Below, piece after piece: positions 7,049-63,569 of a DNA stretch of 64,000 nucleotides (position 1 is its first letter; each line of letters opens with the position of its first letter). The stretch comes from a plasmid. The notes under the pieces were generated by a model. The model ran no database searches. It was not told the origin of the DNA and saw nothing but the letters and a program-made list of their open reading frames with translations. The stretch lies in sequence record NZ_MK262712.1; one strand, given 5' to 3'. A program made the position numbers and the translations under genes.

Positions 7049-7053
7049 AAATT

Positions 7054-30386: not shown

Positions 30387-30395
30387 TTATATACC

Positions 30396-31253
30396 TTATT
30401 TGTTAAAGGGATTTTTAAGCAAAGGTTGTAAATTCAGTTTTAACCAGTTTTTATAATCAGTCGGTAATCCATTGCCCAACACTCCATCTTCACGAACTAC
30501 AGATGGGATGCCTTGAACGTTATAAATGGATGCCAGGTATAGACCTGTAACAATAGGTTCTACTGAACAATCTTTCAGATTTTCATGAGGAATAAGCCGG
30601 TTGTTTATATCTTCTGATTTTCCTAATAACGACTGAAGAATATCATAATTGGTAATTTTACCAGCTTTAACAGAGCACCACATTTGTTTTACCCGTTTAG
30701 CTGATTCGCCAGGGCTGGGTAAAATAACAATATCAAAGCGAACAAGTTCCCTTTCTTCATTCATCTTTTTCAGAAAGTCAATACAATCTTGACAATCAAG
30801 AGAAATGAATATAACTGCCTGTCGTTTGAGGGACGGATTCCCGAACTGGATAGTAAAGGCATCCTCAGGTTTGAACGGTGCTTCGTTCAATGGTAAAAAG
30901 TAACTTTCTCGGATATCTGATATCGATTGAACTTGTTTTTTCCTGAGAACATCATAAACTTTACCTTCTGAAAAAGAGTAGCGACCCGTTGTGGTAACTA
31001 GGGTGAGGCCACTTCGCTGATCCTCAAATAAAAAAATCCCACCCGTCGGTAAGTAGACAGCATCCTTTGGCTGGTAAGGACTAAGCTTGCTAACTAATCC
31101 CCTTGACGACTGATTTAAAGCGAGACCATTTTCAGCAGCAGCGCGTGTTAACGCCGCAGCTTCTGCATCATACTTATCAGCTGCAGCAGAATGAGTTGAA
31201 TTGAGTAGTGCTATACACACGAGCAACTTGATAAGTAACTTTCTCATAATCAC
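30396..31253 (-). CDS. Periplasmic thioredoxin-fold disulfide isomerase, DsbC/TrbB-like
   Basis: Signal peptide and a CxxC active site (SLDCQDCIDF). F-type systems carry a TrbB disulfide isomerase. Confidence 0.55.
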   Translation of the reverse strand: MIMRKLLIKLLVCIALLNSTHSAAADKYDAEAAALTRAAAENGLALNQSSRGLVSKLSPYQPKDAVYLPTGGIFLFEDQRSGLTLVTTTGRYSFSEGKVYDVLRKKQVQSISDIRESYFLPLNEAPFKPEDAFTIQFGNPSLKRQAVIFISLDCQDCIDFLKKMNEERELVRFDIVILPSPGESAKRVKQMWCSVKAGKITNYDILQSLLGKSEDINNRLIPHENLKDCSVEPIVTGLYLASIYNVQGIPSVVREDGVLGNGLPTDYKNWLKLNLQPLLKNPFNK

Positions 31254-35982: not shown

Positions 35983-36015
35983 ATTGTTGTTTTGCTCGTT
36001 TAGCAAAAATTTTTT

Positions 36016-36438
36016 TTAAAGCACAACACCCGCATCAAGGAATCCGGTGATGATTTTTTCGCCGTTAGCCAAAATCATCATCATAAGGAATGAAACGAGT
36101 GCCAAACCCGGGTTCGGACGGCCGATGGAGAAGTAGAATGCAGAGATCAGCATACATGCGGCCAGGGCCTTCCCGGGCGCGCCACTTAAAGCTTCTGAAA
36201 GTTGGGTCCAAATTTCACCCAAGGCTCCGTCATCCCCGCCCGCCAAAGCAATAGATGAGAACAACGCAGCGCACAACAGCGCAATAAATACCTGGAACAT
36301 TTTATTGCTAAGCATATTACGCAGGCTTTCAGCCAGAGTGTAGTTAGCAGTAGTGCCGCTCATAGCCATTGATTTCTGGATCATTGTGAAACTCCTGAAT
36401 GCGAATATTGTATATGTGTTCTGGTGACTAACCAGCAA
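36016..36438 (-). CDS. trhA: Conjugative pilin precursor (TraA/TrhA-like)
   Basis: First gene of the traA-L-E-K-B order. Long leader, two hydrophobic segments, Ala/Gly-rich (AALFSSIALAGGDDGALGEIW...). An alternative start is at 36387. Confidence 0.6.
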   Translation of the reverse strand: MLVSHQNTYTIFAFRSFTMIQKSMAMSGTTANYTLAESLRNMLSNKMFQVFIALLCAALFSSIALAGGDDGALGEIWTQLSEALSGAPGKALAACMLISAFYFSIGRPNPGLALVSFLMMMILANGEKIITGFLDAGVVL

Positions 36439-36439
36439 T

Positions 36440-36870
36440 TGGAGAATACCCTGGGTTAATTTTTGATTTTCAAACTAAGGAACAAATTTTTTAAACAAAA
36501 AAGAGAAAACGCTGAAGTTATAAAAGTTACTTTTCAATGAGTTTTTTTCTTATCGACATGTCATTATCAATTAGTTACAAAATTCGCCCTGTTTCATTCA
36601 TTTCACTTTGCCAAAGAAAACATATTGATTTTAAAGTAGATTTTGACAACCTCTTTTCTCCCGTAATCCTTTTTATCCTCCTGTACATTCTTGGTTTCTT
36701 CGAAAAAGTCACTTTTTTGTCCATGCAAACACTGTTTTTGCGATCATAAAAGTAACTTTTGGACCTGATAAATTACGATGTCCTTTAAAAAAGTGACTAT
36801 TGGTCACCATCTTAATGTTCACTTCTTGAGCAAGGACAACCAGGGAGTTGAGAAAAGTCACTTTTTGGCT
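36440..36870. promoter_or_regulatory. Regulatory hub upstream of the pilin operon with five palindrome-motif copies
   Basis: AAAAGTTACTTTT (36521), AAAAAGTCACTTTTTT (36702), AAAAGTAACTTTT (36746), AAAAAAGTGACTATTGGTCAC (36786), AAAAGTCACTTTTT (36852). Confidence 0.55.
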
Positions 36871-37199
36871 GTGATACAGTTCAGGTGTTAATTTTCCCCT
36901 TCCAGCTTAACTACCATAATTAGTGGGTCATCAAAAGAGGCGCACAGATCCTCCAAAAATGGTCCTAGAATGTAGAGAAAATGGAGAAATTTTGAATAAT
37001 TTGTAACCCACATAACATATTGATCTTTAATAGTTTAATGTTATTTTTGGAATAATTATCTAAATGACTACGGTTACACATAGCACTTTGGAACATAATC
37101 AGCTATAGAAGATAAAACTTATGCTTTTACCCTCTTCCCATGGGCCATTTCTAAATGTAAATTTAGGAGAATTCTTATGTTTGTCATGAAAGGAATATC

Positions 37200-37514
37200 A
37201 TGAAAAGTCGGATGGTAGAGGTCGCTGGGTTAAATCTTAAAATTACCATACATAACAACATGTTAGCTTTGAGTTATAATATTGACGGGCTCAGTATTTA
37301 CAATTCAAGTCGTATTATTCGCAACTCAAAACTAACCGAATCTGAGATTTTCGCAAGAATTGACGCTGATTTGGTTAGCAAAGTTTTTTCTGTAAATATC
37401 AAGCAGATAAACAACATCGTACACTCTAATGTCTGCGTAATACCTATACAGACTCAAGCTAAACAGGTTAACTTTGCGGCTGGAGTAATGGCGTCTTGTT
37501 TCAAGAATTTCTGA
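37200..37514 (+). CDS. Hypothetical protein, 104 aa
   Basis: ORF only. Confidence 0.3.
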   Translation: MKSRMVEVAGLNLKITIHNNMLALSYNIDGLSIYNSSRIIRNSKLTESEIFARIDADLVSKVFSVNIKQINNIVHSNVCVIPIQTQAKQVNFAAGVMASCFKNF

Positions 37515-37643
37515 TTAATAGTCTAGATACCATAGGGATAATCGGAAGTATTATCGCTCCCCTGCTCGTGATGTCAGCTGGTTCTGGTGACATAAAAATA
37601 CCCCCTTACCTAGCGATCTTTTCCTGATAGGATAGGAATATTT

Positions 37644-38327
37644 GTGAGGGGGGTAAATATGTGGGTCACAAAAGATAATGAAATTATCTCAGATGCTGAA
37701 CCGGATTCAGACGGTTTTATGGAAGTTCGCCGTCCATGCCCTGACTGTTTAGGTTCAGGTATAAACTGCCTCCAGTGTGCGGGTTCTGGCTCATTGCCGG
37801 CTGTTATGGAAAAAGTATATCCTGTGTACGAGTGGGCTTCTAAAAACTCTCTACAGATGCCATTTAAATCACCTGAACAAGCACTTATTAAAAGCTTTCT
37901 TAAAGTTATTTTAGAGGCACCCAATCAGGGTAAAAGTAATTTTTACTCAGCACTCATCCAAAAATTGGATAAAAGTTACTTTCCTACAAAGTTACAATTT
38001 CGATGTCTGAAACCTAATGGATATAGAAAAAGTTCAGCAGTCAGCCTTCAAGTACGGCCCTTTACTGCCAAAATCGGTACCAAACTGTATCTGGCTCTCA
38101 CCGTAATTAAAATTCAGGTGCTCACCAGAAAATGTTCTTCTGAGAGTTTTTCATCTTTACTTTTGGAGACCTCTGACCACCGGCATTTTATTGCTTATGA
38201 TACGCACCCATCAGGGTTTATTCTTGGTAATATAATTAATTGCAATGTCCAAGTTGTTAAACGACTCTGGGTTAATAATATGAGTATATTGCTGGTGAAA
38301 ATGATTTCATCTTCTCTGATTAAGTGA
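37644..38327 (+). CDS. Hypothetical protein with N-terminal CxxC-x8-CxxC zinc-ribbon-like motif
   Basis: RRPCPDCLGSGINCLQCAGSGS. Confidence 0.4.
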   Translation: MRGVNMWVTKDNEIISDAEPDSDGFMEVRRPCPDCLGSGINCLQCAGSGSLPAVMEKVYPVYEWASKNSLQMPFKSPEQALIKSFLKVILEAPNQGKSNFYSALIQKLDKSYFPTKLQFRCLKPNGYRKSSAVSLQVRPFTAKIGTKLYLALTVIKIQVLTRKCSSESFSSLLLETSDHRHFIAYDTHPSGFILGNIINCNVQVVKRLWVNNMSILLVKMISSSLIK

Positions 38328-38382
38328 CAGTGGTTACCAAACACAAGTTATAAGTCTTTTAAAGAGGCAATACTTACTCGTT

Positions 38383-39147
38383 ATGAATAGTCATAAGAAT
38401 TACAAAGAGTTAGGGTTATTGCAGGATTTTTTTAGAAAAAACCATAAAGCTACCTTTAATTGTGATCAAAATAAAGTTGAGATCACCTCTAGTGATATCA
38501 CTCCACTTCTTGTTAAAGGTAAAAGTAACTTTCAACAGGCTAAGTTTTGTTTATCCGGACCGGTGATGCATTTACGGTATCAACCTTTATGGTTTGCTAT
38601 TTTGCTGGGACTGAACGCTAGACAACCAATCCATCAAGAACTTCAGTTCAGTATTTCACTTGTTGAACTTATAGAAAAATCGGGACGTGTTTGTCAGGCA
38701 CTCGGAATCAGGCAAGTCAACTATACACTTGCTGAAGTTTCTTACTTTTTGTTGCTACTCATAGAGTTCAGAATCGAGATACAAAAAAGTAATATCTGTC
38801 AGACCTGTTCGGTTTTTACAGAAATCAGTCACGATATAGATTTTCAGTCTATCAGCATGGCTAGTGTTACTATCAATCCTAGAGTGGTTGACAAACTTTG
38901 GGAACTGACTAATTCGGCGTCAGTTTTTTTGACAACTCTCTTTTTTGCCAAGCGCCCGGAACTATACAGCCTACTGCAAAAGTTACTTTCAAAAACTGAA
39001 GAGGTTTCCCTTAGCGACATTGCTCCTGCAACGTTTCAACACGTACAGTTGTTATGCCGTCATGGCCTCGTCACCTACACTAAAAAGCATAAAATACTTG
39101 ATATTCATAGTGTTAGTGTTTTAATTGAAGGCCTCCACCCATTGTAA
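38383..39147 (+). CDS. Hypothetical protein, 254 aa
   Basis: ORF in the divergent accessory operon. Confidence 0.4.
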   Translation: MNSHKNYKELGLLQDFFRKNHKATFNCDQNKVEITSSDITPLLVKGKSNFQQAKFCLSGPVMHLRYQPLWFAILLGLNARQPIHQELQFSISLVELIEKSGRVCQALGIRQVNYTLAEVSYFLLLLIEFRIEIQKSNICQTCSVFTEISHDIDFQSISMASVTINPRVVDKLWELTNSASVFLTTLFFAKRPELYSLLQKLLSKTEEVSLSDIAPATFQHVQLLCRHGLVTYTKKHKILDIHSVSVLIEGLHPL

Positions 39148-39274
39148 ACAACCAGTAAAAGTAACTTTCATAAAAAATTTACCAAACTGGCTTTTTTGAC
39201 CACATAGCGAGAAACTTTTACAAAATAATACTGTACAGTCTAATTTCAGGAATGGTTCAGTCATAGGTAAGAAA

Positions 39275-40453
39275 ATGAAACAAACAGCTGACTTTTTTAT
39301 CTCTACAGAGCGGAACGGGAGGCTAGTCAAAAATTTGCGTGAATTTAGTGACGCAAATCCTGACATTTGCCACAAAGCGGTTAATGGCCAACCGTTTATG
39401 ATCGACCCAAGGGCATTAGTGTTAGTTCCAAACTGGAACTGCCGTGAGATGGGTCTGGGAGAGGCATACTACAAATTACCTAAACCTGCCGAGCATATTC
39501 AGAATCTTAAAAAAGCATTTCTGAATGGGGCAGACATTGACCCTATAACTGTCGTTATTGTTGACGGTAAACCACTGGTTCGACAGGGGAACTGTCGTAC
39601 AAGAGCTGCGCTTTTGGCTCAACAAGAATCAGGTCTCCCCATCCTAGTTAGATTGCGTGAGTTCCAGGGTGACGAGATAGAACAAGAATGGCATTCTCTG
39701 GATGGGGCGAAATCTCTCCCCCTTTGCCCCGTAGGTCGCGGCATTGCCTATAGCAGACTGGTAAATGATGCCGGGATGTCTGTTGAGCAGGTTGCACAAC
39801 GGGAAAACATTTCTGAAATGGCAGTTCGCCAAATCATTTCTCTTGCAACCATCGATGACGAATTAAAGACGTTGATTAGTCAGGATGTTATTTCGTACAC
39901 ACTCTGTCTTGAATTAATTCGTGATCTTGGTGAAAAGGAAGCTCTTGATAAAATTCGGGCCGACCTAAACGCCAAGATAATGGTTATTAATAGTTCCACC
40001 GGGAGTGATACCCTTCCTCTGAATGTTGCCGAAATAATTAAGTCTCATGGTAGTCCTAAGGCTGTCAGGGTCACTAAATCTTCACTGGGAGTGCAACCAA
40101 TTCCTCGTAAACTGGCACAAAATCTCGCAGCCAGTACTAAAGAGGTTTGCAACAGATTACGAGCCTCCCTTCCCTCTTCGTTTGATCTCAATCAGATTGG
40201 ACCCAACGAAAAAATAAATATTGAAGTTGACAGACATCTAATTGAACTTATATTTAATTCAGATGACTCTATTCGTGGCCATGAAGCTAAGCTCGAGCGT
40301 AAAACAACAAAGGGAAAACTTTCTAGTTCTGCCCCATCAGTAACATCAGAGGTAAACTCTAATGCGCTGCCAGCTAATGATCCTATGGAGGAGCCCGCTT
40401 CAGAAAGTCAGGAAAATGAATTTTCGCTATTGAATTTACATTCCGCAGTTTGA
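39275..40453 (+). CDS. ParB/KorB-like DNA-binding protein (ParB N-domain-like plus HTH), 392 aa
   Basis: Degenerate ParB-box-like IVDGKPLVRQGNCRTRAALLA, HTH MSVEQVAQRENISEMAVRQIISLA, acidic C-terminal tail. It is distinct from the SopB-like ParB at 48131. Confidence 0.55.
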   Translation: MKQTADFFISTERNGRLVKNLREFSDANPDICHKAVNGQPFMIDPRALVLVPNWNCREMGLGEAYYKLPKPAEHIQNLKKAFLNGADIDPITVVIVDGKPLVRQGNCRTRAALLAQQESGLPILVRLREFQGDEIEQEWHSLDGAKSLPLCPVGRGIAYSRLVNDAGMSVEQVAQRENISEMAVRQIISLATIDDELKTLISQDVISYTLCLELIRDLGEKEALDKIRADLNAKIMVINSSTGSDTLPLNVAEIIKSHGSPKAVRVTKSSLGVQPIPRKLAQNLAASTKEVCNRLRASLPSSFDLNQIGPNEKINIEVDRHLIELIFNSDDSIRGHEAKLERKTTKGKLSSSAPSVTSEVNSNALPANDPMEEPASESQENEFSLLNLHSAV

Positions 40454-40817
40454 ATTTAAACAACGAGATAATTTAAATGATAGAGGGTTGGACTATGTCT
40501 GATAGTAAAATCAACGAGATGCAGGGAATCCCCCCTTTTCCAGAAAATGGAGAACCTATTGCAGTATTGGTTCCCCCGGTAGCAATGAATAATTTTCCGT
40601 TGGCTAATCCAGAAGAGGATTAACTACTCTTTGAACCTACTCGTCTTTAAAGTAAGGGGCTATTTTACAGCTCCTTATTTTATTGTAACTTAACCTAAAA
40701 ACACCCCCCTATCGTTATAGACACTGAATAAAATCAATTCCGCTGTTTTTATTGAATGTTTTTGATTTCTATAGATTAACTCCTTGTTCTCCCTTTTTTG
40801 TATTTTTAAAATAGGGT

Positions 40818-41339
40818 ATGTACAAGCCTTTTTCATTTGATTTAATTGTGTCATACATAACGAGATGGTGGGGCCTATCCATGACACATTCGAATGAAAG
40901 ATGGTATTCAGTTGACGGTCAGTTAATTGATAATAAACTTGTTTTCAATATTAATGAATTCAACGGCACTGCTCGGTACGAAAAAAATTTTATCTGCTCA
41001 TATTGTAAAGGCTCAGGTCGTCATCGTATCAGTTATGCAAATTCTTCAGGAAAATGTTCCGCGTGTAAAGGTACGGGCAAACAAGGTACCTTAATAAAAG
41101 AGTGTTTCACGCTTCAAATGCTTTTTAAAAAGAATTATCTAGCTGCTAAAAAGATTGTTTCTTCACGACACTGTCGTGAGAGTCAAGGAAAAAATTTATC
41201 AGCCCTTGAGAGACAAATCATGTCTTCAAGCAACAAAAACCCCTTCCTTAAAAGCCTTACGCTTACGATTCAAAGTGGTCGTCATCTTTCAACTAAGCAG
41301 ATTGCTGTAGCAGAAAGTATCCTTTCCCAACTTAGCTGA
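40818..41339 (+). CDS. Small protein with two DnaJ-type CxxCxGxG zinc-finger repeats
   Basis: CSYCKGSGRH ... CSACKGTGKQ. Confidence 0.4.
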   Translation: MYKPFSFDLIVSYITRWWGLSMTHSNERWYSVDGQLIDNKLVFNINEFNGTARYEKNFICSYCKGSGRHRISYANSSGKCSACKGTGKQGTLIKECFTLQMLFKKNYLAAKKIVSSRHCRESQGKNLSALERQIMSSSNKNPFLKSLTLTIQSGRHLSTKQIAVAESILSQLS

Positions 41340-41498
41340 ACCTCCGAGTTAAAATGTCACTATCAAAAGATGGTGACATTTCTTTCTTTTGCTCTCTTAT
41401 GTCGGAAACCCAAAAATTTCACATGATACTATTCTCGTATAGACCTATGAGTGTCTTTGAAAAGTAACTTTCGTGGCTTCTCACATAAAAGGTTTCCT

Positions 41499-43937
41499 AT
41501 GCGCTTTTCACTATTCTTAAATCATTTTGCTTTAGCTTTGAGTCTCTCAATAGCCACGAGCATGTTTTCCAACGCCCAGGCCCGGGTATACGAGTACACC
41601 TTTACAGATATCAATGGGGCGCAAAAAAGTGTCCCTGAAAGTGCGCCCTATCTTAATCCACATGGGAATTTTAACGCTCTCCTCATTGGTGGCTTGGACC
41701 AACAAATCCGCTTAACCGTAACTCGCGATGCTGATAACAGTGCTGTTTACAGCACAACAACAAGTATCATCTCTGTTGATGACAGGATTTCTTCCGCTAA
41801 TGGAAATATGTTTTACGGAAAGACTGTCACTATTCCACCTATCAGTGATGGTCGTTACACCATAAAATCTGAGATTTTAGACTCAAAATCGACCGTTGTT
41901 TCAACAACATCCCATCCTTTTATAATAGATACGGTAGGCCCTACGTCTGATAACTTCTCTGTACCATGGATTCCTGGGTACAACATGGTTGTAACGGGAC
42001 CTCGCTGGGAACTTGGCCAAGGTCAAGAATCTGCCATAAATCTTGCAATTAAGAATATCAATGATCTATCTGGTTTTGATAAGGCTATTGTTCAAATAAT
42101 AAAACCAGATGGATCAATACAATCCAGCTATACGATGGCCTACGACGATGGGTCAAGAGCTGCTACAGCCCCTATAACTAAAGGTGGTGGAGCGATAGCT
42201 AAAGCTACATGGATGCCAGTGTCGGATGCCGATGTAGAGTTTCGCTTTCGAGCATTCCTTTATGATAAAGCCGGAAATGTTACTCAAGTCCCCGACCAAA
42301 AATTTGTATTTGATTCTTCTGCAGGTGAATATGAGCTATTTGCAGTTGCAGACCCCAATTCTTCAACTAGTGTTGTTCCCGGCATTTCGTCTGGCTACAT
42401 TAAATATTCAGCAGGGATGACTGTTAATACTAACCCTGTTACTCTTGTGTACAAGATTCCCAAACATAATTATAGGGCTTATAACAAAGCTGGTTTATCC
42501 TTCGGTTCTTTGCTTACTGAAGATAATAGTTATGTATATATAAAACAATCCACCCCAGTTGGTACATCATTTACTATTCATAATGGATACCAATACGGAG
42601 GAGGTAACGCTTCGTATAATGTTAAGTTAAGTTCAATCGCTCCGAAATCCCCATCAATAAAATCCTACTCAGCAAACTTTTCAACAATTGGCGATTTTTC
42701 TGCTGGCACAATGAAATTCACAAACATAGATTTGCCAGGTGAGTATCAAAGTATAACTGTGTTTGTAGACCCTAGGGATTATGTGCAGTCATTTTATAAC
42801 CTTACACAAGGCTACGAAGTTTGTACTATTGAGCCCGGAGAAAGTTCTTGCACTGGTCCTTTTTCATACGCAATAAATAAGGGGAATGGTTACATAGCTC
42901 ATTATTTTATAGTTCGCAATCAAGATAAGACACTTACATCAAATCAATTTGAGATTCGTAGCATCTGGAATACGGATTTAATACCTAAGATCACAGGGTA
43001 TGATTACAAAGAAGAGAATAAATCTGTCCTTGTTTATGTCACACAACCCGGCAATGGCAATTGGCGTGATGTCTTGATGCTTTCTAAGCTAGAGATACTG
43101 GATACAATTTCTAATACGGTTCTTCTGACGGGCACAAAAGCCGCGATGTCTGGAGAGGACTATACTTATGCATTTGATTTATCGGCTATACCTGAAGGGA
43201 AGTATGATTTAACCTTCAGGGCCACTGATACTTTTAACAACAGTTCTCAGTTGCCGTTCAGATCTCTTATTATAGATAACTCCCCTCCTTCAATTTCATT
43301 TTCGTATGAAGGGAAACCACTGTTATCAGAAAGTACAGTCTATGGATTAGAAAACATCTCAGTAGCTGTATCTGATGCTTTAAGTAAGTCCAAGATCTCT
43401 CAAATGGTTCTTCAAGGAGGCCCTGCATCAGATGATGTAGAATTAGGATTTACCCATAACACAGATGGTTCATACACACCACTTTATCCTCGTTTGTTTC
43501 CTTCACTTGATGAAAAAACTGATAAATACACACTTGTAGTTAAAGCTATAGATGATGCAGGTAATGAGTCATCAAAATCTATCCGTTTTGCATATTATCC
43601 TAAGAATCTCATTGTTCTTGATAAACTTAATACCCTTGCGGTTAACAAACCTTTAAACCTTTCTTCAGGTGAACCTCTGGCTGTTCTTAAAGCAAGTCAG
43701 TTACGCCGTAATGATGGTTCCTTAGCAAAAGGCGTACAGACAGCTTTAATTACTGTTAGGGGTGACTCAGCATTCCCAATTAGTGTTAATGGAAACCTTG
43801 TTTCTCCAGGTGAAACGAAAGAAATTCAAATAGATTTAGGTTCTGTAGGAAATGACGTTGTTGTCCCTATATTCCCAGGAGTATCTGGCGTTGTCGGTGC
43901 CTCCGGTTTTATTGTTGAATTCCCTCAACTAAAATAA
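41499..43937 (+). CDS. Exported ~810-aa surface protein, paralogue A of a four-member family
   Basis: Signal peptide ...SMFSNAQA|RVYEYTF. The C-terminal ~200 aa are highly similar to paralogues B-D and end in IVEFPQLK. Palindrome motif at 41458 in the 5' UTR. The ORF track starts at 41451. Confidence 0.65.
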   Translation: MRFSLFLNHFALALSLSIATSMFSNAQARVYEYTFTDINGAQKSVPESAPYLNPHGNFNALLIGGLDQQIRLTVTRDADNSAVYSTTTSIISVDDRISSANGNMFYGKTVTIPPISDGRYTIKSEILDSKSTVVSTTSHPFIIDTVGPTSDNFSVPWIPGYNMVVTGPRWELGQGQESAINLAIKNINDLSGFDKAIVQIIKPDGSIQSSYTMAYDDGSRAATAPITKGGGAIAKATWMPVSDADVEFRFRAFLYDKAGNVTQVPDQKFVFDSSAGEYELFAVADPNSSTSVVPGISSGYIKYSAGMTVNTNPVTLVYKIPKHNYRAYNKAGLSFGSLLTEDNSYVYIKQSTPVGTSFTIHNGYQYGGGNASYNVKLSSIAPKSPSIKSYSANFSTIGDFSAGTMKFTNIDLPGEYQSITVFVDPRDYVQSFYNLTQGYEVCTIEPGESSCTGPFSYAINKGNGYIAHYFIVRNQDKTLTSNQFEIRSIWNTDLIPKITGYDYKEENKSVLVYVTQPGNGNWRDVLMLSKLEILDTISNTVLLTGTKAAMSGEDYTYAFDLSAIPEGKYDLTFRATDTFNNSSQLPFRSLIIDNSPPSISFSYEGKPLLSESTVYGLENISVAVSDALSKSKISQMVLQGGPASDDVELGFTHNTDGSYTPLYPRLFPSLDEKTDKYTLVVKAIDDAGNESSKSIRFAYYPKNLIVLDKLNTLAVNKPLNLSSGEPLAVLKASQLRRNDGSLAKGVQTALITVRGDSAFPISVNGNLVSPGETKEIQIDLGSVGNDVVVPIFPGVSGVVGASGFIVEFPQLK

Positions 43938-43951
43938 TTATTAACCACGCC

Positions 43952-43976
43952 AAAAACCAGCTTCTGGCTGGTTTTT
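43952..43976. terminator. Rho-independent terminator after paralogue A
   Basis: AAAAACCAGC-ttctg-GCTGGTTTTT. Confidence 0.55.
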
Positions 43977-44204
43977 GTATTTTTTTAATAAAGATGGCTG
44001 ATATGCCTAGCCCCCTCCCCTTTTCTTTTACATGACCTGAAAACCCATCTTCTTTTTTTTCACATATCCTCCCCCTTCGATATTTACCAGTCATCCCCTG
44101 AGCTTCCGCAATTACCTGAAGTGATAATATGCTGAACACCTCCCCTCTTCCCGGTGATTTACTTGTGACTTAACTTACTCATGAAGACCTGTATGAATAA
44201 AATC

Positions 44205-46450
44205 ATCCCGTTATTCGCAGCTACATCCCGGAAGCCTCTAAATTCTGATGATGCCCCACATATGCAGTACGATCCCTGTTCGCAGTCGTATATCTTAAGC
44301 CTCAGCGGATTCCTGATGCGCAGCAGCTGAAAACAACCCCCTTGTTCGCAGTCAGATACCTTAAGCCTCATCAGTCTCCTGATGTGCAGCAGTTGAAAAC
44401 AACCCCGTAGTTCGCAGTCGGATACCAGAGTCACAGCAGACTCATAATGTGCAGCTGGTGAAAACAACCCCGTTGTTCGCAGTCGGATACCAGAAGCCAC
44501 AGCAGACACATAATGTGCAGCCGGTGAAAACAATCCCGTTGTTCGCAGTCAGATACCTCCAGCCTCATCAGCCCCCCGATGCGCAGCAAGTAAAACCCCA
44601 TGTTCGCAGACGCATACCTGAAGCCACAGCAGACTCATGATGTGCAGGAGGTGAAGACAACCCCGTTGTTCGCAGGCTGATACCTGAAGCCACAGCAGAC
44701 TCATAATGTGCAGCCGGTGAAAACAACCCCGTTGTTCGCAGTCGGTTACCAGAAGCCACAGCAGACTCATAATGTGCAGCCGGTGAAACAACCCCGTTGT
44801 TCGCAGTCGGATACCTCCAGCCTCATCAGACTCCCGATGCGTAGCAAGTTAACCCCCCTCAGCTTGTCCGCAGTCGGATACCCGAAGCCACCACAGACTC
44901 ATGATGTGCAGCAGGTGAATACAACCCCGTTGTTCGCAGTCGGATACCAGAAGCCACAGAAAACTCATAATTTGCAGCCGGTGAAAACAACCCCGTTGTT
45001 CGCAGTCGGTTACCAGAAACCACAGCAGACTCATAATGTGCAGCCGGTGAAAACAACCCCGTTGTTCGCAGTCGGTTACCAGAAACCACAGCAGACTCAT
45101 AATGTGCAGCCGGTGAAAACAATCCCGTTGTTCGCAGTCAGATACCTCCAGCCTCATCAGCCTCCCGATGCGCAGCAAGTTAAACCCCATGTTCGCAGTC
45201 GGATACCAGAAGCCACAGCAGACTCATTATGTGCAGCTGGTGAATACAACCCCGTTGTTCGCAATCGGATACCAGAAGCCACTGCAGACTCATGATGTAC
45301 AGCATGTGATAACAATTCCCTGTTCGCAGTCAGATACCTCCATCCTCATCAGACCCTTGATGCGCAGCAAGTTAAACCCCCTCAGCTTGTCCTCATTTGG
45401 TTACCTGAAGTCTCTTCAGGCTACCGATGTGTAGCCAGTTAAACCCCTTGTTCGCAGACGCATACCTGAAGCCACAGCAGACTCATAATGTGCAGCCGGT
45501 GAAACAACCCCGTTGTTCGCAGTCGGATACCTCCAGCCTCATTAGACTCCCGATGCATAGCAAGTAAACCCCCCTCAGCTTGTCCGCAGTCGGATACCCG
45601 AAGCCACCACAGACTCATGATGTGCAGCAGGTGAATACAACCCCGTTGTTCGCAGTCGGATACCAGAAGCCACAGCAGACTCATAATGTGCAGCCGTTGA
45701 AAACAACCCCGTTGTTCGCAGGCTGATACCTGAAGCCACAGCAGACTCATAGTGTGCAGCCGGTGAATACAAACCCGTTGTTCGCAGGCTGATACCTGAA
45801 GCCACAGCAGACTCATAGTGTGCAGCCGGTGAAAACAACCCCGTTGTTCGCAGTCGGTTACCAGAAGCCACAGCAGACTCATGATGCGTAGCGAGTTAAA
45901 ACAACCCCCTTGTTCGCCGTCATTAAGTGAAGCCTCTACTGACTGATGAAGTTCAGCCAGTGAATACAACGCCGTTATTCGTAGTCGTTACGTGAAACCT
46001 CAGCGGATGAATGATGTGCAGCCGGTGAAAACAACCTCGTTGTTCGCACTATACTCATGTGAGCCTCTCGTAACTCCCGAAGCCCCATAGATGATTTCAA
46101 CTCCTTTTTATAAAATCGGCTATCTGAATCCTCAGACTATTCCAGATATCTTGCAGATAAAACCATCCCGCTGTCTGTTCGCAGTCGGCTATCTTAAGCC
46201 TTATCAGATTCCTGATGCTTGCAGGTGTAAAAATCCTTTTGTTCGTAATCGGATCCAAGGATTCTCTGGACACCCATGAAGTCCACAGATGAAATGCAAC
46301 TCCGCTGTTCGCAGTCTGGTCATGCGTGCCCATGGAGACTCATGAAGCCCCACAGATGCAATCAAACAACGTTTCACAAAGTCGGTATCAGAATCCACAG
46401 AAGAATCCTAATGCCTTGTAGATGAAAACCCATTGTTCGTAGTCGGCAAT
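44205..46450. repeat. Tandem array of about 34 x 66-bp repeats (candidate centromere/iteron array)
   Basis: Period of exactly 66 (for example 44981 to 45047). The consensus unit GTGAAAACAACCCCGTTGTTCGCAGTCGGATACCAGAAGCCACAGCAGACTCATAATGTGCAGCC contains the inverted repeat AACAAC-ccc-GTTGTT. Two alternating unit subtypes. Edge units are more degenerate. Confidence 0.85.
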
Positions 46451-46553
46451 TCTGGTCTGGAGCCCCAATAAGTTGAACAGCCATGTTTTCGACCTCGAAA
46501 TTTGGGAAGGTATACATCGTTAAACCGGCCTCCAGTAGATAGGTGAAAGAGAA

Positions 46554-46585
46554 GGGCAGGGCAGGGCAGGGCAGGGCAGGGCATG
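46554..46585 (+). repeat. (GGGCA)6 pentanucleotide microsatellite / G-quadruplex-type motif
   Basis: gggcagggcagggcagggcagggcagggca read directly. Confidence 0.8.
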
Positions 46586-46803
46586 GTAAAGGGGTGGCAT
46601 AGTCATTTGCGCCCATGGGTTCTAGCTAAATTTTAAAAATTGAGTATGGATGGCTGGGAAAAAGTCTCAGAATTCACCAAATCTGTGAATTTTGCCTAGT
46701 TAAATTAGATTTCTTTTAATATCAATACCTTGAGAATCATTTGTACATTTCTCGCCCAAAAAAGACTGTGCACGAAATCTCATTTTGAGCGCATGATGTG
46801 ATA

Positions 46804-46827
46804 AAAGTGCATTGTAATGCACTTTTA
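46804..46827. promoter_or_regulatory. 24-bp palindrome about 55 bp upstream of parA (candidate ParA/ParB autoregulatory operator)
   Basis: AAAAGTGCATT-gt-AATGCACTTTT. Confidence 0.4.
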
Positions 46828-46883
46828 CCTTGTAATACGCTCAATCCTCATGAATAATGTGAAGACTAACCTAAGGAGAGATC

Positions 46884-48131
46884 ATGAGCATATTAGATGA
46901 TATTCGTACTATCGGCCTAAAGATGAAAAATGAACAAGCAAGCCTCAAGGAAATAATCTTGGAGTCGAGTCGGGTTGATGTTTCGGATGAACAAGTCGAT
47001 GGCTTAGATCGTCTTATCTATAACCATTGTTTAAATAAAAAAACTCTTTCGGACTTCTTTGGTAAATCAAGAAACACTTTTAGTAGAATTCTTGCTGAAC
47101 TACATGAGAAAAAAGTGATCGGTGAACCTATCTTCCAGAATAAGAGTCACCTGTATACACGTTGGGATGTTCAAAAAATAATGGAAGCGATGGGCACTAT
47201 TCAATATCGTGAAATGTATTTGCCCCGAGTTATTGTTACGGAAAACCATAAAGGTGGGACAGGTAAAAGTACAACAACAGCAACACTTGCTACCGCGGCC
47301 GCTTTGGATCTTAATCTGAATGCAAAAATCTGCGTAATTGATCTTGACCCCCAAGGCTCGTTAGGCAATAACCTTATCCACTCAACTAGTGAAGATAGTG
47401 TTTACCTAACCATAACCGATGTTCTGCTTAGTGAAATTGAAGATAATGACTTTACACAATATATAAAACAGGGATATACGGAAGCACAAATTATTGGTGC
47501 TATGGCATTTTCAACCCATCTCCCTAACATGGATGTTATAACTGCATTCCCGACAGATGATAGATTTACTGATAAATATTGGAGCCTCGATAAGGAGTCA
47601 AGACTCAAACTTCTTACACGTTTTCGTGATGTGGTTATACCTGTATTAAAGGAAAAATATGACCTTATATTTATAGATACTCCGCCACAAGATTCTCCAA
47701 TTATTTGGTCAACAAACGAAGCAGCTGATGCAATACTTGTTCCCATTACACCACGAGAATATGATTTTGCATCAACCACAAACTATATGATTACGATTTC
47801 AGACCGACTTGAGCAGCTTCCATCTAAGGGAACAAATATTAAATGGATTAATGTTCTTGCAGTAAACGTAGATGATAGAAGTCAACATGAGATTCGTACT
47901 TTAAATAAACTAGTAAGAACTGTACGTGATCGGTTCATGACAACAAATATTAAACATTCAGAGGCTTTCGTTGCAGCGGCTGAAAAAGGTCGTACTGTAC
48001 TCGATATTAAAAAATCAGAAGAACTTTGTTCTTCGAAACAATATGATATTGCTGAAATGTCGGTTCAGTCGGTGTATCAACAACTTATCAATGAAATTAA
48101 AAGCTTCTCAGTTAGGGAGGAGGGTAAATAA
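46884..48131 (+). CDS. parA: Type Ia partition ATPase ParA/SopA-like with N-terminal HTH extension
   Basis: Deviant Walker A KGGTGKSTTTATLA about 110 aa from the N-terminus, followed by DLDPQGS. 415 aa is consistent with SopA/P1 ParA. Confidence 0.85.
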   Translation: MSILDDIRTIGLKMKNEQASLKEIILESSRVDVSDEQVDGLDRLIYNHCLNKKTLSDFFGKSRNTFSRILAELHEKKVIGEPIFQNKSHLYTRWDVQKIMEAMGTIQYREMYLPRVIVTENHKGGTGKSTTTATLATAAALDLNLNAKICVIDLDPQGSLGNNLIHSTSEDSVYLTITDVLLSEIEDNDFTQYIKQGYTEAQIIGAMAFSTHLPNMDVITAFPTDDRFTDKYWSLDKESRLKLLTRFRDVVIPVLKEKYDLIFIDTPPQDSPIIWSTNEAADAILVPITPREYDFASTTNYMITISDRLEQLPSKGTNIKWINVLAVNVDDRSQHEIRTLNKLVRTVRDRFMTTNIKHSEAFVAAAEKGRTVLDIKKSEELCSSKQYDIAEMSVQSVYQQLINEIKSFSVREEGK

Positions 48132-49141
48132 TGAGTGATGTTGAACGCGGTACAAGCAAAGACAAATACTTAACCGGAAACAGCAAACGTACATTTGTCG
48201 ATCAAAAAAGCGGACTTCCACCTTTACGTACTTCTCCTACACAGAAGCGACTATTTACTCTAGCAAATGGGCGTAAAGTTGAAGCTCGCTACGTTGTCGT
48301 CCCTGGCTCAGAAGTTGCTAATAAAACGCTCGTTCATGAACTAAACCCACGAAATCAAGAGGCAGTTGACGATCTCTCTACAAGAGAAATTCTTCCTTTA
48401 ATTAAAGAGAATGGGGTTACAACTGAAGCTATTGCCGTCTACCGGGACGGCCAATTTTACCTAATTGAAGGAAGTAGGCGTCGTTTCTGCTGCATAAAAT
48501 GTTCGGTTGATTTACCTTTATGGGCCTTCGATGTAGAGGTTAGCCGTGAAGATGTCGATTGTATTGTTAATGCTGCACAAACGGCAAAACGATTCTCGTA
48601 TCGTGAAGTTGGAATTAAATACCTTGAAATCATGAAGAATAAGGGTTTTAAAACTAATGAGGAACTTGCTTCTTATCTTAATATTGGTATTGAATCGATA
48701 AGAAAGAGAATTCAGGCTGCAAAAATCAGTAAAGAACTTATTAGAATATTCCCAGATAGTGAGGGGATACCTAATACTTATTATAGTAAATTGGCTAGAA
48801 TTGAAAAAACCGCTAATGCTAATAACATTCCTCTGACAGAGCTAACATCTGAAGTAGGGGCGGATGACAATAAAATTACTAACATTAATGATATTGAGGA
48901 AGTTCAGAAGTCAATTTTAGATGGTTTACATTCAGTTCTTAGTATTCTTTGTAATGATGTAAATAAACCGCAAAACTGGACAGTGACTGATATTGCTGCT
49001 TTTGATAATAAGGATACTTACGCTAGGGTAAAAAGAAGCGCCGATGGCCAGAAAGTAAGCTTTGAATTTAAGCGTATTGGTCAATCAACAATAAATGAGA
49101 TTGAACGCTTAATTAAAGTTAGTATTAGCAAAGCAAAATAA
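48131..49141 (+). CDS. parB: Partition protein ParB/SopB-like
   Basis: ATGA-coupled to parA. ParB N-domain motif YLIEGSRRRF, 336 aa. Confidence 0.7.
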   Translation: MSDVERGTSKDKYLTGNSKRTFVDQKSGLPPLRTSPTQKRLFTLANGRKVEARYVVVPGSEVANKTLVHELNPRNQEAVDDLSTREILPLIKENGVTTEAIAVYRDGQFYLIEGSRRRFCCIKCSVDLPLWAFDVEVSREDVDCIVNAAQTAKRFSYREVGIKYLEIMKNKGFKTNEELASYLNIGIESIRKRIQAAKISKELIRIFPDSEGIPNTYYSKLARIEKTANANNIPLTELTSEVGADDNKITNINDIEEVQKSILDGLHSVLSILCNDVNKPQNWTVTDIAAFDNKDTYARVKRSADGQKVSFEFKRIGQSTINEIERLIKVSISKAK

Positions 49142-49325
49142 TTATTTTATTTTTAGTCATGATTCTTTAACAGGGATCATGACTTTCTCATTTATGCAAC
49201 TCACATGTACGACTTTGACACTGGAGGTTCTAACAGCTTTCTGTTCCACTCTTGGCAGAGAAGAATCCCTTTGCTCAAGTCCATCTCTTGGTGCTCCGGC
49301 AGCTTTCAGAAGCATCGTTGACAAA

Positions 49326-49480
49326 AACAACCCCATTGTTCGCAGTCGGATACCTGAAGCCACCGCAGACTCATGATGTACTGCAGGTGAAAACAACCCC
49401 GTTGTTCGCAGTCGGATACCAGAAGCCACGGCAGACTGATTCTGTGCAGCAGATGAATACAACCCCATTGTTCGCAGTCT
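49326..49480. repeat. Mini-array of about 2.5 units of the same 66-bp repeat, downstream of parB
   Basis: TTGTTCGCAGTC cores at 49335, 49401 and 49467 (66-bp spacing), same AACAACCCC-GTTGTT feature. Confidence 0.75.
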
Positions 49481-49862: not shown

Positions 49863-52268
49863 TTACTTGATTTGCGGAAATTCGATTATGAAATTGCTTT
49901 CCCCTGTAGAACCGTTTTCTGCTGTGAAAATAGGAACAGTTGAGTTTTCACCGGTTCCAAGGTCTATCTGAATTTCTTTTGTCTCCCCGGGATGAATAAC
50001 GTTCCCAAGGATGTTTATCGCATAATCTGCGTCCTTCCTGACCGTGATGTTTGCCGTTTGTATACCCTTAGCCAGTGAGCCATCGTTACGTCGTAGCTGT
50101 CCCGTCCGCATGACGGCCAACGGTGTGTTGTCACTGGTTTTTAGCGCCTTTACAACACCCAAAGTTTTCAGCTTCTCAAGGGTGACCAGGTTTTTTGGGT
50201 AATAGGCGAACTGAATGCTTTTTTGAGTAGTGTTACCTTTCGCGTCGGTAGCATATGCGGTTAGTGTATATTTGTCCGTGTTTGCATCCAGACTGGGGAA
50301 GAGACGAGGGTAATCAGGTGTATAACTACCGTCCGTATTCTGGTTAAACCCCAAGATAACGCTATCCGACGCTGGTCCTCCTTTAAGTTCAAGTCTGACA
50401 AGGCTGGGTGCTGTTAACTCATCATTTAGCGTTATACTGATGTTCTCAAGCCCGAAAACAGTAGCACCGGGGGATAGCGGCGCATTTTCATATTTAAAAT
50501 TAACAACAGGAGGTGTCTTGTCGTTAATCAGATTTATGAATGGTGATGAAGTTTCATTGTTAAAGCTGTCCTTTGCCAGAAAGCCTAAATTGTATTTACC
50601 TTCGGCCAGTTTGCTGAGATCAAAACTATATGTGTAATCCTCGCCAGATAGAGCTGTTTGGATACCTGACAGTAGTTGGTCCCCGGTATCTGAATCAATC
50701 AGAGCAGCAGATTTGAGTTGCAACAAATCGCGGAATTTTCCGCGCCCTGGTTGCGTCACAAATAAGAGTACAGTTTTGTTTTCCTCTTGGTAACTGTATC
50801 CGGTTATTTTGGGTAAAAGATCAGTGTTCCAGTGATGTCTCTTTTCTACGGTGACTGATGAAAGGGTTTTATCCATATCAGTCAATTTGAAGGCATAAGT
50901 TGTAATACCATTACCTGATTTTGGAATAGACCATGATACCGCACCGGTACACTCAGTCTCACCAGCTGGTATCTGACATATCTCAGTGTTTCCACTCATC
51001 GCCCTCTGACCATAATTTCGTGGAGACGCAGTGATCCTTACAGAACTGAATTTCACGGGCAGATCTATGGTATCCCAAAGGTAGCTACTCGAATTCATTT
51101 CTCCTTTTTTATCTGAAGTTAACCATACTTCAGGTGCTGCCGGGCTGGCCGGAGCCTCACTTCCTAAATTGATATTATAGGAGAGTGAGCCTCCACCCCA
51201 TTGATATCCGTTATGGATGACGTAAGCTACCTTATAGGCCGTTTTCGCGGATACATAACTGTATCCATTCGCTTCGGAAATAATTGTGCCAAATTTCAAA
51301 CCAGCTTTACTGTATTCCCTTCGATTATTCGATGGAACCCTGTACACGAGTGTTAAAGGGTTTTGGTTAACGGTCATTCCCGGCTTATATGCTATGTAAC
51401 CTTCACTAAATCCCGGAACTACGCTTGTTTTAGAAGTCGGGTCATAAACAGCAAATAAAGTATATTCACCAAGATCTGAGTCAAATATGAACTTCTGATC
51501 CGGCAAAACTTTACGGTTTCCCGCTTTATCATAGAGCGTCACACGGAAACGATATTCCACATCAGCGTTTGATACAGGCATCCATGATGACCGACTCATA
51601 TTCCCTTTTGTCCACGGTATTGAAAGGGATGCTGATCCACTGTCATAAACCATATCTGTAGTTGAAAAAACAGTATCATCAGGTTTTATCACCTGAATAG
51701 TCGCTTTATCAAAACCGGTGGCAGATTTGACGTTTTTCACATTCAGGTACAGCTTTGCTTCAGCCCCGAGGCCCAGTTCCCAACGCTCACCTGTTAAGAC
51801 CATATCATATCCGGGGTTTTGGTCCACGCTCAGGTTATCTGACGAAGGCCCTACAGTATCAATAATAAAATTGTGAGACGTGCTGTCGATAACAGTGTTT
51901 TGAGTATTCAGGATATCTGACGTTATTACATAACTTCCATCACTCAGTGGTGGCAATGTCAGCGTTTTACCATAAAATTCTTCACCAGTTGATGCCTTTA
52001 TACGGTCATTGACCGTCACGCTCTCAGTAGTAAAGCTATATACTCCAACATTGTCTTTCTTTACTGTTACCTGAATTTTTCTGTCGAGTCCCGATATTAT
52101 TCTTACCTGAATTTTTTCATTGGTATTTAGGATACCTGCTTCCGCACTGACTGATTTATCCGTTCCATAGACATCCTTGAATACATATTCATACACACGA
52201 GCATATGAGGGGAGTGAAAAAGCGGAGAGGGCAATTAGTATTAAAGTAGTCTGTAAATTAATTTTCAT
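49863..52268 (-). CDS. Exported 801-aa surface protein, paralogue B
   Basis: Signal peptide MKINLQTTLILIALSAFSLPSYA|RVYEY. C-terminus IIEFPQIK. Palindrome at 52313 in the 5' UTR. Confidence 0.7.
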   Translation of the reverse strand: MKINLQTTLILIALSAFSLPSYARVYEYVFKDVYGTDKSVSAEAGILNTNEKIQVRIISGLDRKIQVTVKKDNVGVYSFTTESVTVNDRIKASTGEEFYGKTLTLPPLSDGSYVITSDILNTQNTVIDSTSHNFIIDTVGPSSDNLSVDQNPGYDMVLTGERWELGLGAEAKLYLNVKNVKSATGFDKATIQVIKPDDTVFSTTDMVYDSGSASLSIPWTKGNMSRSSWMPVSNADVEYRFRVTLYDKAGNRKVLPDQKFIFDSDLGEYTLFAVYDPTSKTSVVPGFSEGYIAYKPGMTVNQNPLTLVYRVPSNNRREYSKAGLKFGTIISEANGYSYVSAKTAYKVAYVIHNGYQWGGGSLSYNINLGSEAPASPAAPEVWLTSDKKGEMNSSSYLWDTIDLPVKFSSVRITASPRNYGQRAMSGNTEICQIPAGETECTGAVSWSIPKSGNGITTYAFKLTDMDKTLSSVTVEKRHHWNTDLLPKITGYSYQEENKTVLLFVTQPGRGKFRDLLQLKSAALIDSDTGDQLLSGIQTALSGEDYTYSFDLSKLAEGKYNLGFLAKDSFNNETSSPFINLINDKTPPVVNFKYENAPLSPGATVFGLENISITLNDELTAPSLVRLELKGGPASDSVILGFNQNTDGSYTPDYPRLFPSLDANTDKYTLTAYATDAKGNTTQKSIQFAYYPKNLVTLEKLKTLGVVKALKTSDNTPLAVMRTGQLRRNDGSLAKGIQTANITVRKDADYAINILGNVIHPGETKEIQIDLGTGENSTVPIFTAENGSTGESNFIIEFPQIK

Positions 52269-52406
52269 ATCAAATTATTAATCCAAAAAATTCGTGAAGT
52301 TTATGCCTTGGAGAAAGTTACTTTTTTCTGATTGCATGCTTTTAACAACACCATTTGGTACGAAACGCCACCAGCCCCACATAGCAGAGGCGGTGGCCGT
52401 CGATAG

Positions 52407-54812: not shown

Positions 54813-54947
54813 TTCAGATCATTCCCAGCAGGCTTGTAATCAGAGTTGAGAAAGTAACTTTTCTCTCTTCCTGGCCGTCATATTCGGCGTTGTCGTGTTT
54901 ATCCAAAAATTACCGGCCCAACAGCAGGGACCCGTAATCGTGAGTCG

Positions 54948-58177: not shown

Positions 58178-58306
58178 TATTCTCTCCCGAAAAATAGGTT
58201 GGACTAAATATCAACTTAATCACCACCAGCAGCCCAAAAGTAACTTTTGGGCCTATGTACACTCCCGCCACCCGGTAAAAGTGACTTTTTACGGCGCACA
58301 TACTGA

Positions 58307-58726: not shown

Positions 58727-59271
58727 AGTTCCGTTTTCCGTATGAACAGACCTAACGCCAATAATCCAGTTATATCAAAATTTGTTTCAGAAATTCCTGA
58801 ATAACAGGACAAAAAAAATCCAGAGAGGAAAGAAATGCGGGACAAAAAGGGTCTTTCAGGATCGCTTATTTTGATATCGTCAATTAACTATTCCATCCCG
58901 AGATGTTCAAATGACGCCAGTATGCAGCGCGGGAAATGTCAAAACAGAATGTGCAGAAAGAAGAAAACGACATAGAAGGAGAGGGAGGCTCATTCACATC
59001 ACTGATGACAGCTATATTAACAGCAGAATGCTTGATCAGATATCCGACGACGTGATGTATCAGGAAGCATTCAGAAAAGGAACTTAACGACGAACGTAAA
59101 AAAACACACTCCACGGCCTTAAAGTACCTTTAAGTCGGGAAAAACCAAAATTTTCTATGTTAGATTATTATCTGTTTTAGTAGGCCAGAACTAAACCAGT
59201 GCCCTGTCTGGTAAAAGGGAGTGGCGGTAGCTTCTGAAAATTCAGTTTAACTTCCAGGTTATTCAAGCGGG

Positions 59272-63537: not shown

Positions 63538-63569
63538 GTACCTGCAGCTGACCATTAACAGGAGGCATA

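Follow-up and report, generated by a model that had tools for sequence, protein, structure and literature searches.

An orphan ParB-like protein with an atypical nucleotide pocket and an exact palindrome dispersed over the backbone of IncHI plasmids: a candidate pairing

The stretch of DNA analysed here (the window) comprises 64,000 nucleotides of the plasmid record NZ_MK262712.1. Our subject is a gene at 39275..40453 on its plus strand, encoding a 392-residue ParB-like protein that lacks a ParA partner, together with a short palindrome that recurs throughout the plasmid and for which this protein is one candidate reader. Hundreds of Klebsiella plasmids typed as IncHI1B/IncFIB, MOBH and MPF_F share region 36000..44000 at 100% identity. 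Aligned with NZ_CP055011.1 191550..255549, the window is nearly identical over its first 58 kb or so; near 58 kb an indel shifts the register between the two (window approximately 58000-64000), and gene coordinates transferred from that record are unreliable past this point. Judged from these matches, the source is a Klebsiella IncHI1B/IncFIB conjugative plasmid. A preliminary description of the window had placed the 392-residue protein at 39275..40453, as a stand-alone ParB in a plus-strand operon divergent from the pilin operon. RefSeq annotates the open reading frame (ORF) identically (WP_004196657.1, 'hypothetical' or 'DNA-binding protein'), parA is not adjacent to it, the sole ParA/ParB pair being at 46884..49141, and a string of plus-strand genes (37659..41339) stands opposite the minus-strand pilin gene trhA (36016..36384), all in agreement with that account. 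The gene and the segments of its product, which include a helix-turn-helix (HTH) and a fold shared with cytidine triphosphate (CTP)-dependent ParB proteins, are as follows (pLDDT, predicted local distance difference test).

39275..40453, plus strand: orphan ParB-like ORF of lineage 'a' (ortholog of R0042 of plasmid R27), ATG start, 392 residues
39395..39970, plus strand: ParB-CTPase-fold N-domain and ParB-type HTH domain, residues 41-232
39587..39610, plus strand: GNCRTRAA, degenerate arginine box (canonical GERRxRAA), residues 105-112
39776..39847, plus strand: helix-turn-helix MSVEQVAQRENISEMAVRQIISLA, residues 168-191, with the putative recognition helix SEMAVRQIISL
39932..40324, plus strand: helical C-terminal region, residues 220-350, no structural match
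40325..40450, plus strand: disordered acidic tail (pLDDT <40) with the terminal motif EFSLLNLHSAV

Membership of the ParB/KorB family had been set beforehand as a claim that a profile search could refute, and the searches bear it out. The protein matches TIGR00180 (E 7e-8) and PHROG_1033 'ParB-like partition protein' (E 5e-23, residues 41-232), and a profile of 51 family sequences finds Spo0J, ParB and Noc structures at E values of 1e-14 to 1e-11 (Spo0J 1vz0, E 1e-14) as well as KorB (8qa8, E 7e-7). Pfam searches with the single sequence return HTH_ParB alone, slightly below its cut-off (22.2 vs 22.6 bits), and the Pfam KorB domain is not detected in the protein. An AlphaFold2 model built on close homologs only was unusable (pLDDT 48.9); redone with 55 diverse sequences, the model reached 77.8 overall and more than 85 over most of residues 10-230, and a Foldseek search with the predicted model gave CTP-bound ParB, Noc and KorB as top matches. 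Sulfiredoxin was not recovered by sequence search and was seen only by fold. The profile matches, the model and its placement by Foldseek establish the protein as a member of the ParB-CTPase/HTH superfamily, with an N-terminal ParB/sulfiredoxin (Srx) nucleotide-binding fold and a ParB-type HTH DNA-binding domain.

The HTH lies where it had been proposed, with MSVEQVAQRENISEMAVRQIISLA at residues 168-191. Residues 220-350 are predicted, with moderate confidence, to form helices, for which a structure search gave no match and which may constitute a dimerisation module. The tail had been called acidic, and its last approximately 42 residues indeed hold seven acidic residues against one basic residue and one His; they are predicted to be disordered, and the terminal EFSLLNLHSAV is kept among homologs of at least 75% identity. 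Near the N-terminus, GRLVKNL shows only a loose resemblance to LG[RK]GLxxLL, which we take to be the ParA-stimulating motif.

The nucleotide pocket is atypical. Residues 105-112 do form a degenerate arginine box, GNCRTRAA for GERRxRAA, as first described: in an alignment to Spo0J of Bacillus subtilis (6sdk), GERRFRAA is replaced by GNCRTRAA, with Cys107 in place of the first Arg and Asn106 of the catalytic Glu, while Q..R of box I becomes N55..R57 and ENLQR becomes D-G-A-K-S. The complete canonical CTP pocket (box I Q..R, GERRxR, ENLQR) is thus not found in this protein. An exhaustive HMMER search of 1.84 billion clusters gave 397 family proteins at E<1e-3, of which 51 representatives were taken. 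N55, R57, G105 and R108 are invariant in all 51, Cys stands at the first-Arg position in 42 and His at the Glu position in 37, and the family consensus of the pocket boxes reads GHCRxRA and T-S-N-D-G. The GxxR phosphate-binding motif is present, with G105 and R108 invariant also in a 55-member set. On these alignments the protein is a member of a distinct subfamily, 'FNxR...GHCRxRA', with what appears to be a family-specific pocket. Mutant studies show that canonical ParB proteins require the box-I Gln and the GERR Glu for CTP hydrolysis and both GERR arginines for binding. Because the Gln and Glu used for hydrolysis, the first GERR Arg and the ENLQR box are all replaced here, nucleotide use would be altered: hydrolysis may be slow or absent, or a nucleotide other than CTP may be bound. 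Orphan ParB folds are common on mobile elements and may bind adenosine or guanosine triphosphate instead (PMC12704722).

The second element, the palindrome, is found in large excess. AAAAGTNACTTTT occurs 16 times in the window against 0.05 expected, and its core AAAGTNACTTT (AAAGT-N-ACTTT) 33 times, from 2816 to 60365, against 0.13 expected. The core is all-or-none, with 33 exact copies, 8 with one mismatch and 70 with two. More than half of the sites (18/33) fall in the intergenic 20% of the window (p 1e-5), and several of the rest are no more than 30 nt from a gene start. The plasmid carries at least 82 copies, made up of the 33 in the window and 25, 12, 7 and 5 in the parts examined of NZ_CP055011.1 (including L008, L009, L174 and L175), a count that leaves out 100-141.5 kb; R27 has 46 (L006, L007, L172 and L173). 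The copies closest to the gene are listed here, with the corresponding sites of R27 and IncHI2; none is assigned a strand.

36523..36864: four exact palindromes in the control region of the divergent trhA and plus-strand operons
37972..38989: three palindromes (37972, 38522, 38979) within the two upstream ORFs
39158..39168: palindrome AAAGTAACTTT, 112 bp upstream of the ParB-like start codon
L006 45094-45108 (R27) and L003 4618-4632 (IncHI2): variant AAAAAGTACCTTTTT, where IncHI1B has the exact AAAGTAACTTT

The position of AAAGTAACTTT is also occupied in a plasmid group of 76% identity. Across IncHI1, IncHI2 and IncHI1B the palindrome is invariant, recurs at orthologous positions and is confined to the IncHI backbone: no copy lies in the resistance region of the NZ_CP055011.1-type plasmid or in the tetracycline-resistance segment of R27, and every IncHI-type metagenomic locus sampled has it while the IncC-like loci have none. 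It is the only dispersed palindrome in R27 and in the NZ_CP055011.1-type plasmid; the others are accounted for by AACAACCCCGTTGTT in the 66-bp repeats of the partition locus and by CCCCG...CGGGG, which belongs to a clustered regularly interspaced short palindromic repeat (CRISPR) array. Intragenic copies are read in two frames (KVTF/L and KLLS/L), and R27 and the window plasmid share orthologous ones in trhI (about 1200), trhN (about 440), trhU (about 15) and rsp (about 960 and about 3200); the flanks of intragenic sites have diverged (around the one in trhI, 37/84 nt are the same). The excess, the exactness, the restriction to the backbone and the orthologous intragenic positions despite diverged flanks mark the palindrome as a DNA element under strong selection. 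A description of an AAAGT-N-ACTTT palindrome was not found in the searchable literature.

Two other explanations of the palindrome were rejected. As an RNA hairpin its 1-nt centre would leave a short A-U stem only; for a C5-methyltransferase the 11-13 exact bases exceed a methylase target, and IncC, where the palindrome is absent, also has an annotated DNA cytosine methyltransferase of equal length. No fixed -10/-35 spacing was seen beside the palindromes, and a contig scan for paired palindromes was uninformative, returning only chance or unrelated matches.

Several genes for immunoglobulin (Ig)-like surface proteins have a copy at or near their start. In the minus-strand array of three tandem 801-residue Ig-like genes (49863..57353), every gene start is preceded by one palindrome at a distance of 44-85 bp, the copies around this array being at 49750, 52314, 54851 and 57433, one of them downstream of the array, and the Ig-like gene at 41451/41499 has one at its start (41461). 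In R27, between traH/mobI and trhR (L007 13436-13576), there are four copies of AAAGTGACCCT, one inverted; these repeats, presumably near the origin of transfer (oriT), have the half-site AAAGTGAC in common with the dispersed palindrome.

By tblastn the gene is present in 2458 plasmid records, and a protein of this type is encoded by all IncHI resistance plasmids. IncHI plasmids carry three lineages of orphan ParB-like genes, and each plasmid keeps two or three. Lineage 'a' consists of the window gene, R27 R0042 and an IncHI2 gene (L003 4711), the syntenic orthologs of IncHI1 (R27) and IncHI2 being 32.8% and 35% identical to the window protein. Lineage 'b' consists of NZ_CP055011.1 20986..22227, R27 92336..93541, IncHI2 L176 2959 and a gene of a K. 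variicola plasmid (L177). Lineage 'c' (R27 R0037 and IncHI2 L003 445) was not detected on IncHI1B plasmids. Paralog 'b' of NZ_CP055011.1, which lies outside the window, has 413 residues and the motif IRQGHCRHRA and is of the same GHCR-type fold family; IncC/SXT-like elements encode a shorter homolog with a canonical GHRRRRA, and none of the ParB proteins seen on the examined IncHI plasmids has a KorB domain. The cluster of palindromes beside the window gene had been taken for the densest. Within the window it is; on the plasmid a denser one, with six copies in 750 bp (NZ_CP055011.1 20118..20865), lies directly upstream of paralog 'b'.

The R27 ortholog, identified by position and numbering, is ORF R0042, which the array study of R27 (PMC7366339) calls a 'partition protein'; apart from that study, no functional work on R0042 was found in the literature. 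Its synteny is that of the window gene (trhA operon, zinc-finger gene, hypothetical gene, ParB-like gene, Ig-like RSP-type gene), except that R27 and IncHI2 have Dam, which precedes the ParB-like gene, and DUF4942 methylase genes inserted around it. On the arrays R0042 reached 6132 units (25 °C) and 2278 (37 °C), against about 40-240 for most of its neighbours and 972 for R0045. In an htdA mutant it rose to 20561 (25 °C) and 8514 (37 °C); like trhR and trhY, it thus belongs to a small set of genes derepressed at 25 and at 37 °C alike (PMC7366339, Tables S3/S4). Its transcript is among the most abundant of R27 and is repressed by HtdA, and parA/parB of R27 are HtdA-independent (PMC7366339); this places the protein in the conjugation circuit, not in partition, and the expression level fits an abundant DNA-binding protein.

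It is proposed that the window protein is an orphan ParB-CTPase/HTH protein acting outside partition in the manner of KorB, BisD or VirB, with the palindrome as its best candidate loading site; taken as a whole, we hold this proposal tentatively, at somewhat less than an even chance. Loading would be by a dimer, whose HTH would recognise a specific palindromic DNA site and whose N-terminal nucleotide-binding fold would serve as the gate; once loaded, the protein would influence how the transfer-linked IncHI backbone is transcribed or how its DNA is organised. The candidate loading site would be the exact AAAGT-N-ACTTT palindrome, perhaps shared with paralog 'b' or belonging to 'b' instead. From the analysis as a whole we infer the loading, the nucleotide gating, the regulatory role and the identity of the site. 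The parts of the proposal differ in strength. A sequence-specific DNA binder of ParB fold with a non-partition role is probable. That one of the orphan paralogs reads the palindrome falls a little short of evenly balanced; that it is the 392-residue window protein which does so is doubtful, paralog 'b' being an equally good candidate. Wider still, a plasmid-wide network may exist on IncHI1, IncHI2 and IncHI1B, in which orphan 'GHCR' ParB folds at 13-bp palindromes control or organise the transfer-linked backbone, an idea that we consider possible yet on balance improbable; such a network may be Noc-sized and KorB/BisD-like, with a non-canonical pocket that is possibly non-hydrolysing or redox-sensitive.

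A ParB-type reader is plausible because the format and distribution of the site match the precedents of KorB OB, BisD bisS and IncC parS. Further points in favour of such a reader are the palindromes ahead of the orphan genes, the great abundance of R0042 and the two to three orphan ParB folds that IncHI plasmids maintain. KorB of the IncP-1 plasmids RK2/RP4 has 13-bp palindromic OB sites, 12 in number, within and far from promoters (PMC11790492), and the window plasmid likewise has a dispersed 13-bp palindrome with a free central base. However, KorB is also a partition ParB encoded beside its ParA (named IncC), whereas the window protein has no parA partner, no Pfam KorB domain, a GNCR instead of a canonical GERR-type box, and at least 82 candidate sites on its plasmid against 12.

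The ParB of IncC plasmids, which with IncA form a sister MOBH/MPF_F family, has 14 dispersed parS sites with the core TTTCACATGTGAAA, four of them within ORFs, and binds them in electrophoretic mobility shift assays (PMC10954446). We re-found this parS independently, as the only enriched palindrome in 50 kb of IncC. Here too an exact palindrome is scattered through the backbone, ORFs included, but its reader is a ParA-linked ParB that has a KorB domain. On IncC, the homolog of the window protein ('R55_24/parB-like regulator') is 27% identical overall and 35% over residues 37-219, its gene simply lies near one parS site, and IncC-type homologs keep GHRRRRA; no dispersed site specific to it stood out near its gene. 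The published IncC parS, ACTTTCACATGTGAAAGT, is also dispersed in IncC/SXT-like elements (IncC plasmid L130 at 16144, 33563, 36978 and 48022; L158-L170), and several relatives of marine or metagenomic origin have it 50-170 bp ahead of their orphan ParB-like gene.

BisD of ICEclc is a ParB-like CTP clamp that loads at bisS, odd-length palindromes inside genes, controls the transfer regulon and activates transfer genes with BisC (PMC12409273). Compared by description, both it and the window protein are orphan ParB-like proteins of a conjugative element with an extra C-terminal module; BisD has a canonical GxxR/ENxxR pocket, hydrolyses CTP and has two loading sites only. For TrhY, considered as an FlhC-like (BisC-type) partner, PDB and NCBIfam searches gave no FlhC signal. 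Noc and VirB are orphan ParB paralogs that bind palindromes in a role other than segregation, Noc at approximately 70 dispersed sites and VirB by counteracting H-NS on an AT-rich plasmid. The window protein resembles them in having a candidate palindromic site, and Noc structures are among its top matches, but its pocket motifs differ. Transfer of IncHI plasmids is silenced by H-NS/Hha (PMC7366339).

A number of observations weigh against the proposal. The pocket is without most of the canonical CTP contacts in both the alignment to 6sdk and the family profile. The site is invariant, while the DNA-binding domain of lineage 'a' is 40-45% identical between groups and its recognition helix 3/11 between IncHI1B and R27, and the Arg-Gln pair of the window recognition helix is missing in R27 and IncHI2. 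The R27 and IncHI2 'a' promoters have no exact palindrome, only the one-position variant AAAAAGTACCTTTTT about 95 bp upstream, whereas each of the four groups compared (IncHI1B, R27, IncHI2 and the K. variicola plasmid) has an exact copy about 100 bp (96-121) upstream of paralog 'b', joined in R27 and IncHI2 by a second one at about 222 bp. At least 82 sites per plasmid is far above the numbers for KorB, IncC ParB or BisD. Finally, the dispersed palindrome of IncC belongs to the partition ParB, and over the 50 kb examined no dispersed site specific to the IncC orphan homolog turned up.

The strongest of the alternatives is a reader that is not a ParB at all, which might be the TrhR/TrhY-HtdA circuit, some other IncHI protein not yet characterised or a DNA-binding protein of the host that evolves slowly; this we consider a serious contender although still improbable, and equally so its corollary that the ParB-like gene is one target only, with a separate function. 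In R27, 139 of 181 expressed genes are HtdA-responsive, a set that broadly tracks the palindrome-bearing backbone, and those that do not respond are for the most part transposition genes and accessory genes for resistance or metabolism, besides parA/parB of the partition module Par1 (PMC7366339), which likewise have no palindrome nearby. Palindromes lie upstream of trhR in R27 and in the window plasmid. Between R27 and IncHI1B, TrhR, TrhY, HtdA and both ParB-like lineages are all only 30-36% identical, and recognition-helix identity is 3/11 for lineage 'a' and 3-4/11 for lineage 'b', so that on these comparisons protein conservation, full-length or in the recognition helix, appears not to separate the candidate readers; with an invariant site and diverged plasmid regulators, a conserved host reader would therefore fit best. 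A whole-plasmid ortholog comparison brought out no small, highly conserved DNA-binding protein, the best-conserved plasmid proteins being Tra components, ParA, the C5-methyltransferase and Hha. On the other hand, the TrhRY/HtdA-dependent F-operon promoter regions of R27 and the window plasmid and the Z-operon promoter of R27 have no palindrome, and TrhR, TrhY and HtdA have no recognisable DNA-binding domain except a Zn-ribbon in TrhY. Many sites lie deep within ORFs, which is atypical of promoter activators, and all-or-none exactness is atypical of ordinary transcription-factor regulons; we know of no enterobacterial factor with an AAAGT-N-ACTTT site.

Paralog 'b' might alone read the palindrome, with the window protein binding a different site or acting via protein contacts. 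The exact palindrome upstream of lineage 'b' genes in every group examined, the position of the densest plasmid cluster and a 'b' recognition helix that retains an H-x-R-[KQ] pattern in all groups speak for this. By plain identity, however, that helix is as diverged as that of 'a' (3-4/11), and palindromes upstream of a gene denote regulon membership, not authorship; we judge this version unlikely.

Very unlikely is a role like that of HerB (YfjB of F), a ParB-like clamp that, once the plasmid has entered, binds the chromosome of the host and reprograms its transcription. In favour, the window protein is an orphan ParB-like protein, has an additional C-terminal module and is encoded on a conjugative plasmid, and HerB homologs are also reported from MobH plasmids (PMC13370423). 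Against this, the tblastn matches are dominated by IncHI and IncC-type MOBH records, with no F-type among the matches listed (2458 records), the gene is part of the Tra2 region and remote from mobI/relaxase (oriT), and its ortholog R0042 is strongly expressed in established donors.

The least likely alternative is a second centromere-binding partition protein, as the label of R0042 would have it, and it is to be read against the Par1 module of the window.

44464..49407, plus strand: Par1 partition module (66-bp repeat array, parA, parB)
44464..46045: 66-bp repeat array upstream of parA, every unit carrying AACAACCCCGTTGTT; a single additional copy (49393) downstream of parB
46884..48131, plus strand: parA
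48131..49141, plus strand: P1/SopB-type parB (PF08775, P1-type ParB)

The array, presumably the Par1 centromere, flanks Par1 and not the gene at 39275..40453, and its own palindrome, AACAACCCCGTTGTT, sustains the earlier view that the SopB-like ParB most plausibly serves these repeats. The ParB fold, the HTH and the 'partition protein' label (PMC7366339) favour a partition role for the 392-residue protein, but its gene has no adjacent ParA- or ParM-type nucleoside triphosphatase gene, the immediate neighbours being zinc-finger and hypothetical genes, and no centromere-like repeat array beside it, IncHI plasmids already have Par1 (R27 has ParMR besides), and R0042 is co-regulated with transfer genes while parA/parB are HtdA-independent; the 392-residue protein is not a partition protein.

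The remaining neighbours of the gene are the following.

36016..36384, minus strand: pilin gene trhA, first of the divergent AC transfer operon, 55% identical to R27 TrhA
37659..39147, plus strand: two upstream co-oriented genes, zinc-finger-like and hypothetical, syntenic with R27 R0039/R0040
40881..41381, plus strand: YuiA-family zinc-finger gene followed by a terminator-like hairpin, downstream of the ParB-like gene

The hairpin, at 41352..41381 after the plus-strand gene string 37659..41339, probably closes the transcription unit of the ParB-like gene. The small proteins encoded on both sides of it (37659-38327 and 40881-41339) carry zinc-finger signatures of the DnaJ type, CxxCxGxG (weak Pfam matches), and the upstream gene (37659-38327) is in a syntenic position in R27 and IncHI2. 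The window covers the IncHI Tra2 region, with trhA-trhC, an htdA operon with a large Ig-like RSP gene and trhW/U/N, and it also encodes the ParA/ParB module and several Ig-like surface-protein genes. At 5774-9225, within the backbone between a Phd/RelE pair and transfer genes, two TnpB genes stand either side of an IS200/IS605 tnpA, and the GC content there is up to 0.50-0.51. The CRISPR array has a 61-bp period, lies outside the window at NZ_CP055011.1 (L008) 30075-31045, adjoins Cas6-like and helicase genes, and is consistent with the type IV-A3 system known from IncHI1B/IncFIB plasmids (PMC7434947). PADLOC defence models gave zero matches.

IncHI plasmids are carriers of multidrug resistance in typhoid Salmonella, of mcr-1 in E. 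coli and of NDM in Klebsiella. The control of their transfer by temperature and HtdA/TrhRY is only partly understood, and we found no published cis-element for it. The present analysis links a conserved, highly expressed and uncharacterised orphan ParB family and an exact IncHI palindrome to recent ParB-clamp regulators of conjugative elements, exemplified by KorB (PMC11790492), BisD (PMC12409273), IncC ParB (PMC10954446) and HerB (PMC13370423). An orphan ParB-fold regulator on a mobile element is of a known kind; the palindrome network is the more striking object, with no earlier description found. The ParB/KorB-type assignment is supported, and the functional pairing with the palindrome stays a candidate one that at least one paralog shares. 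If neither orphan reads the palindrome, the network still needs a reader and the ParB-like gene is one target. If one of them does, IncHI plasmids would gain a testable global switch for transfer and backbone expression, and the ParB-CTPase fold would gain a variant with Cys for the first GERR arginine.

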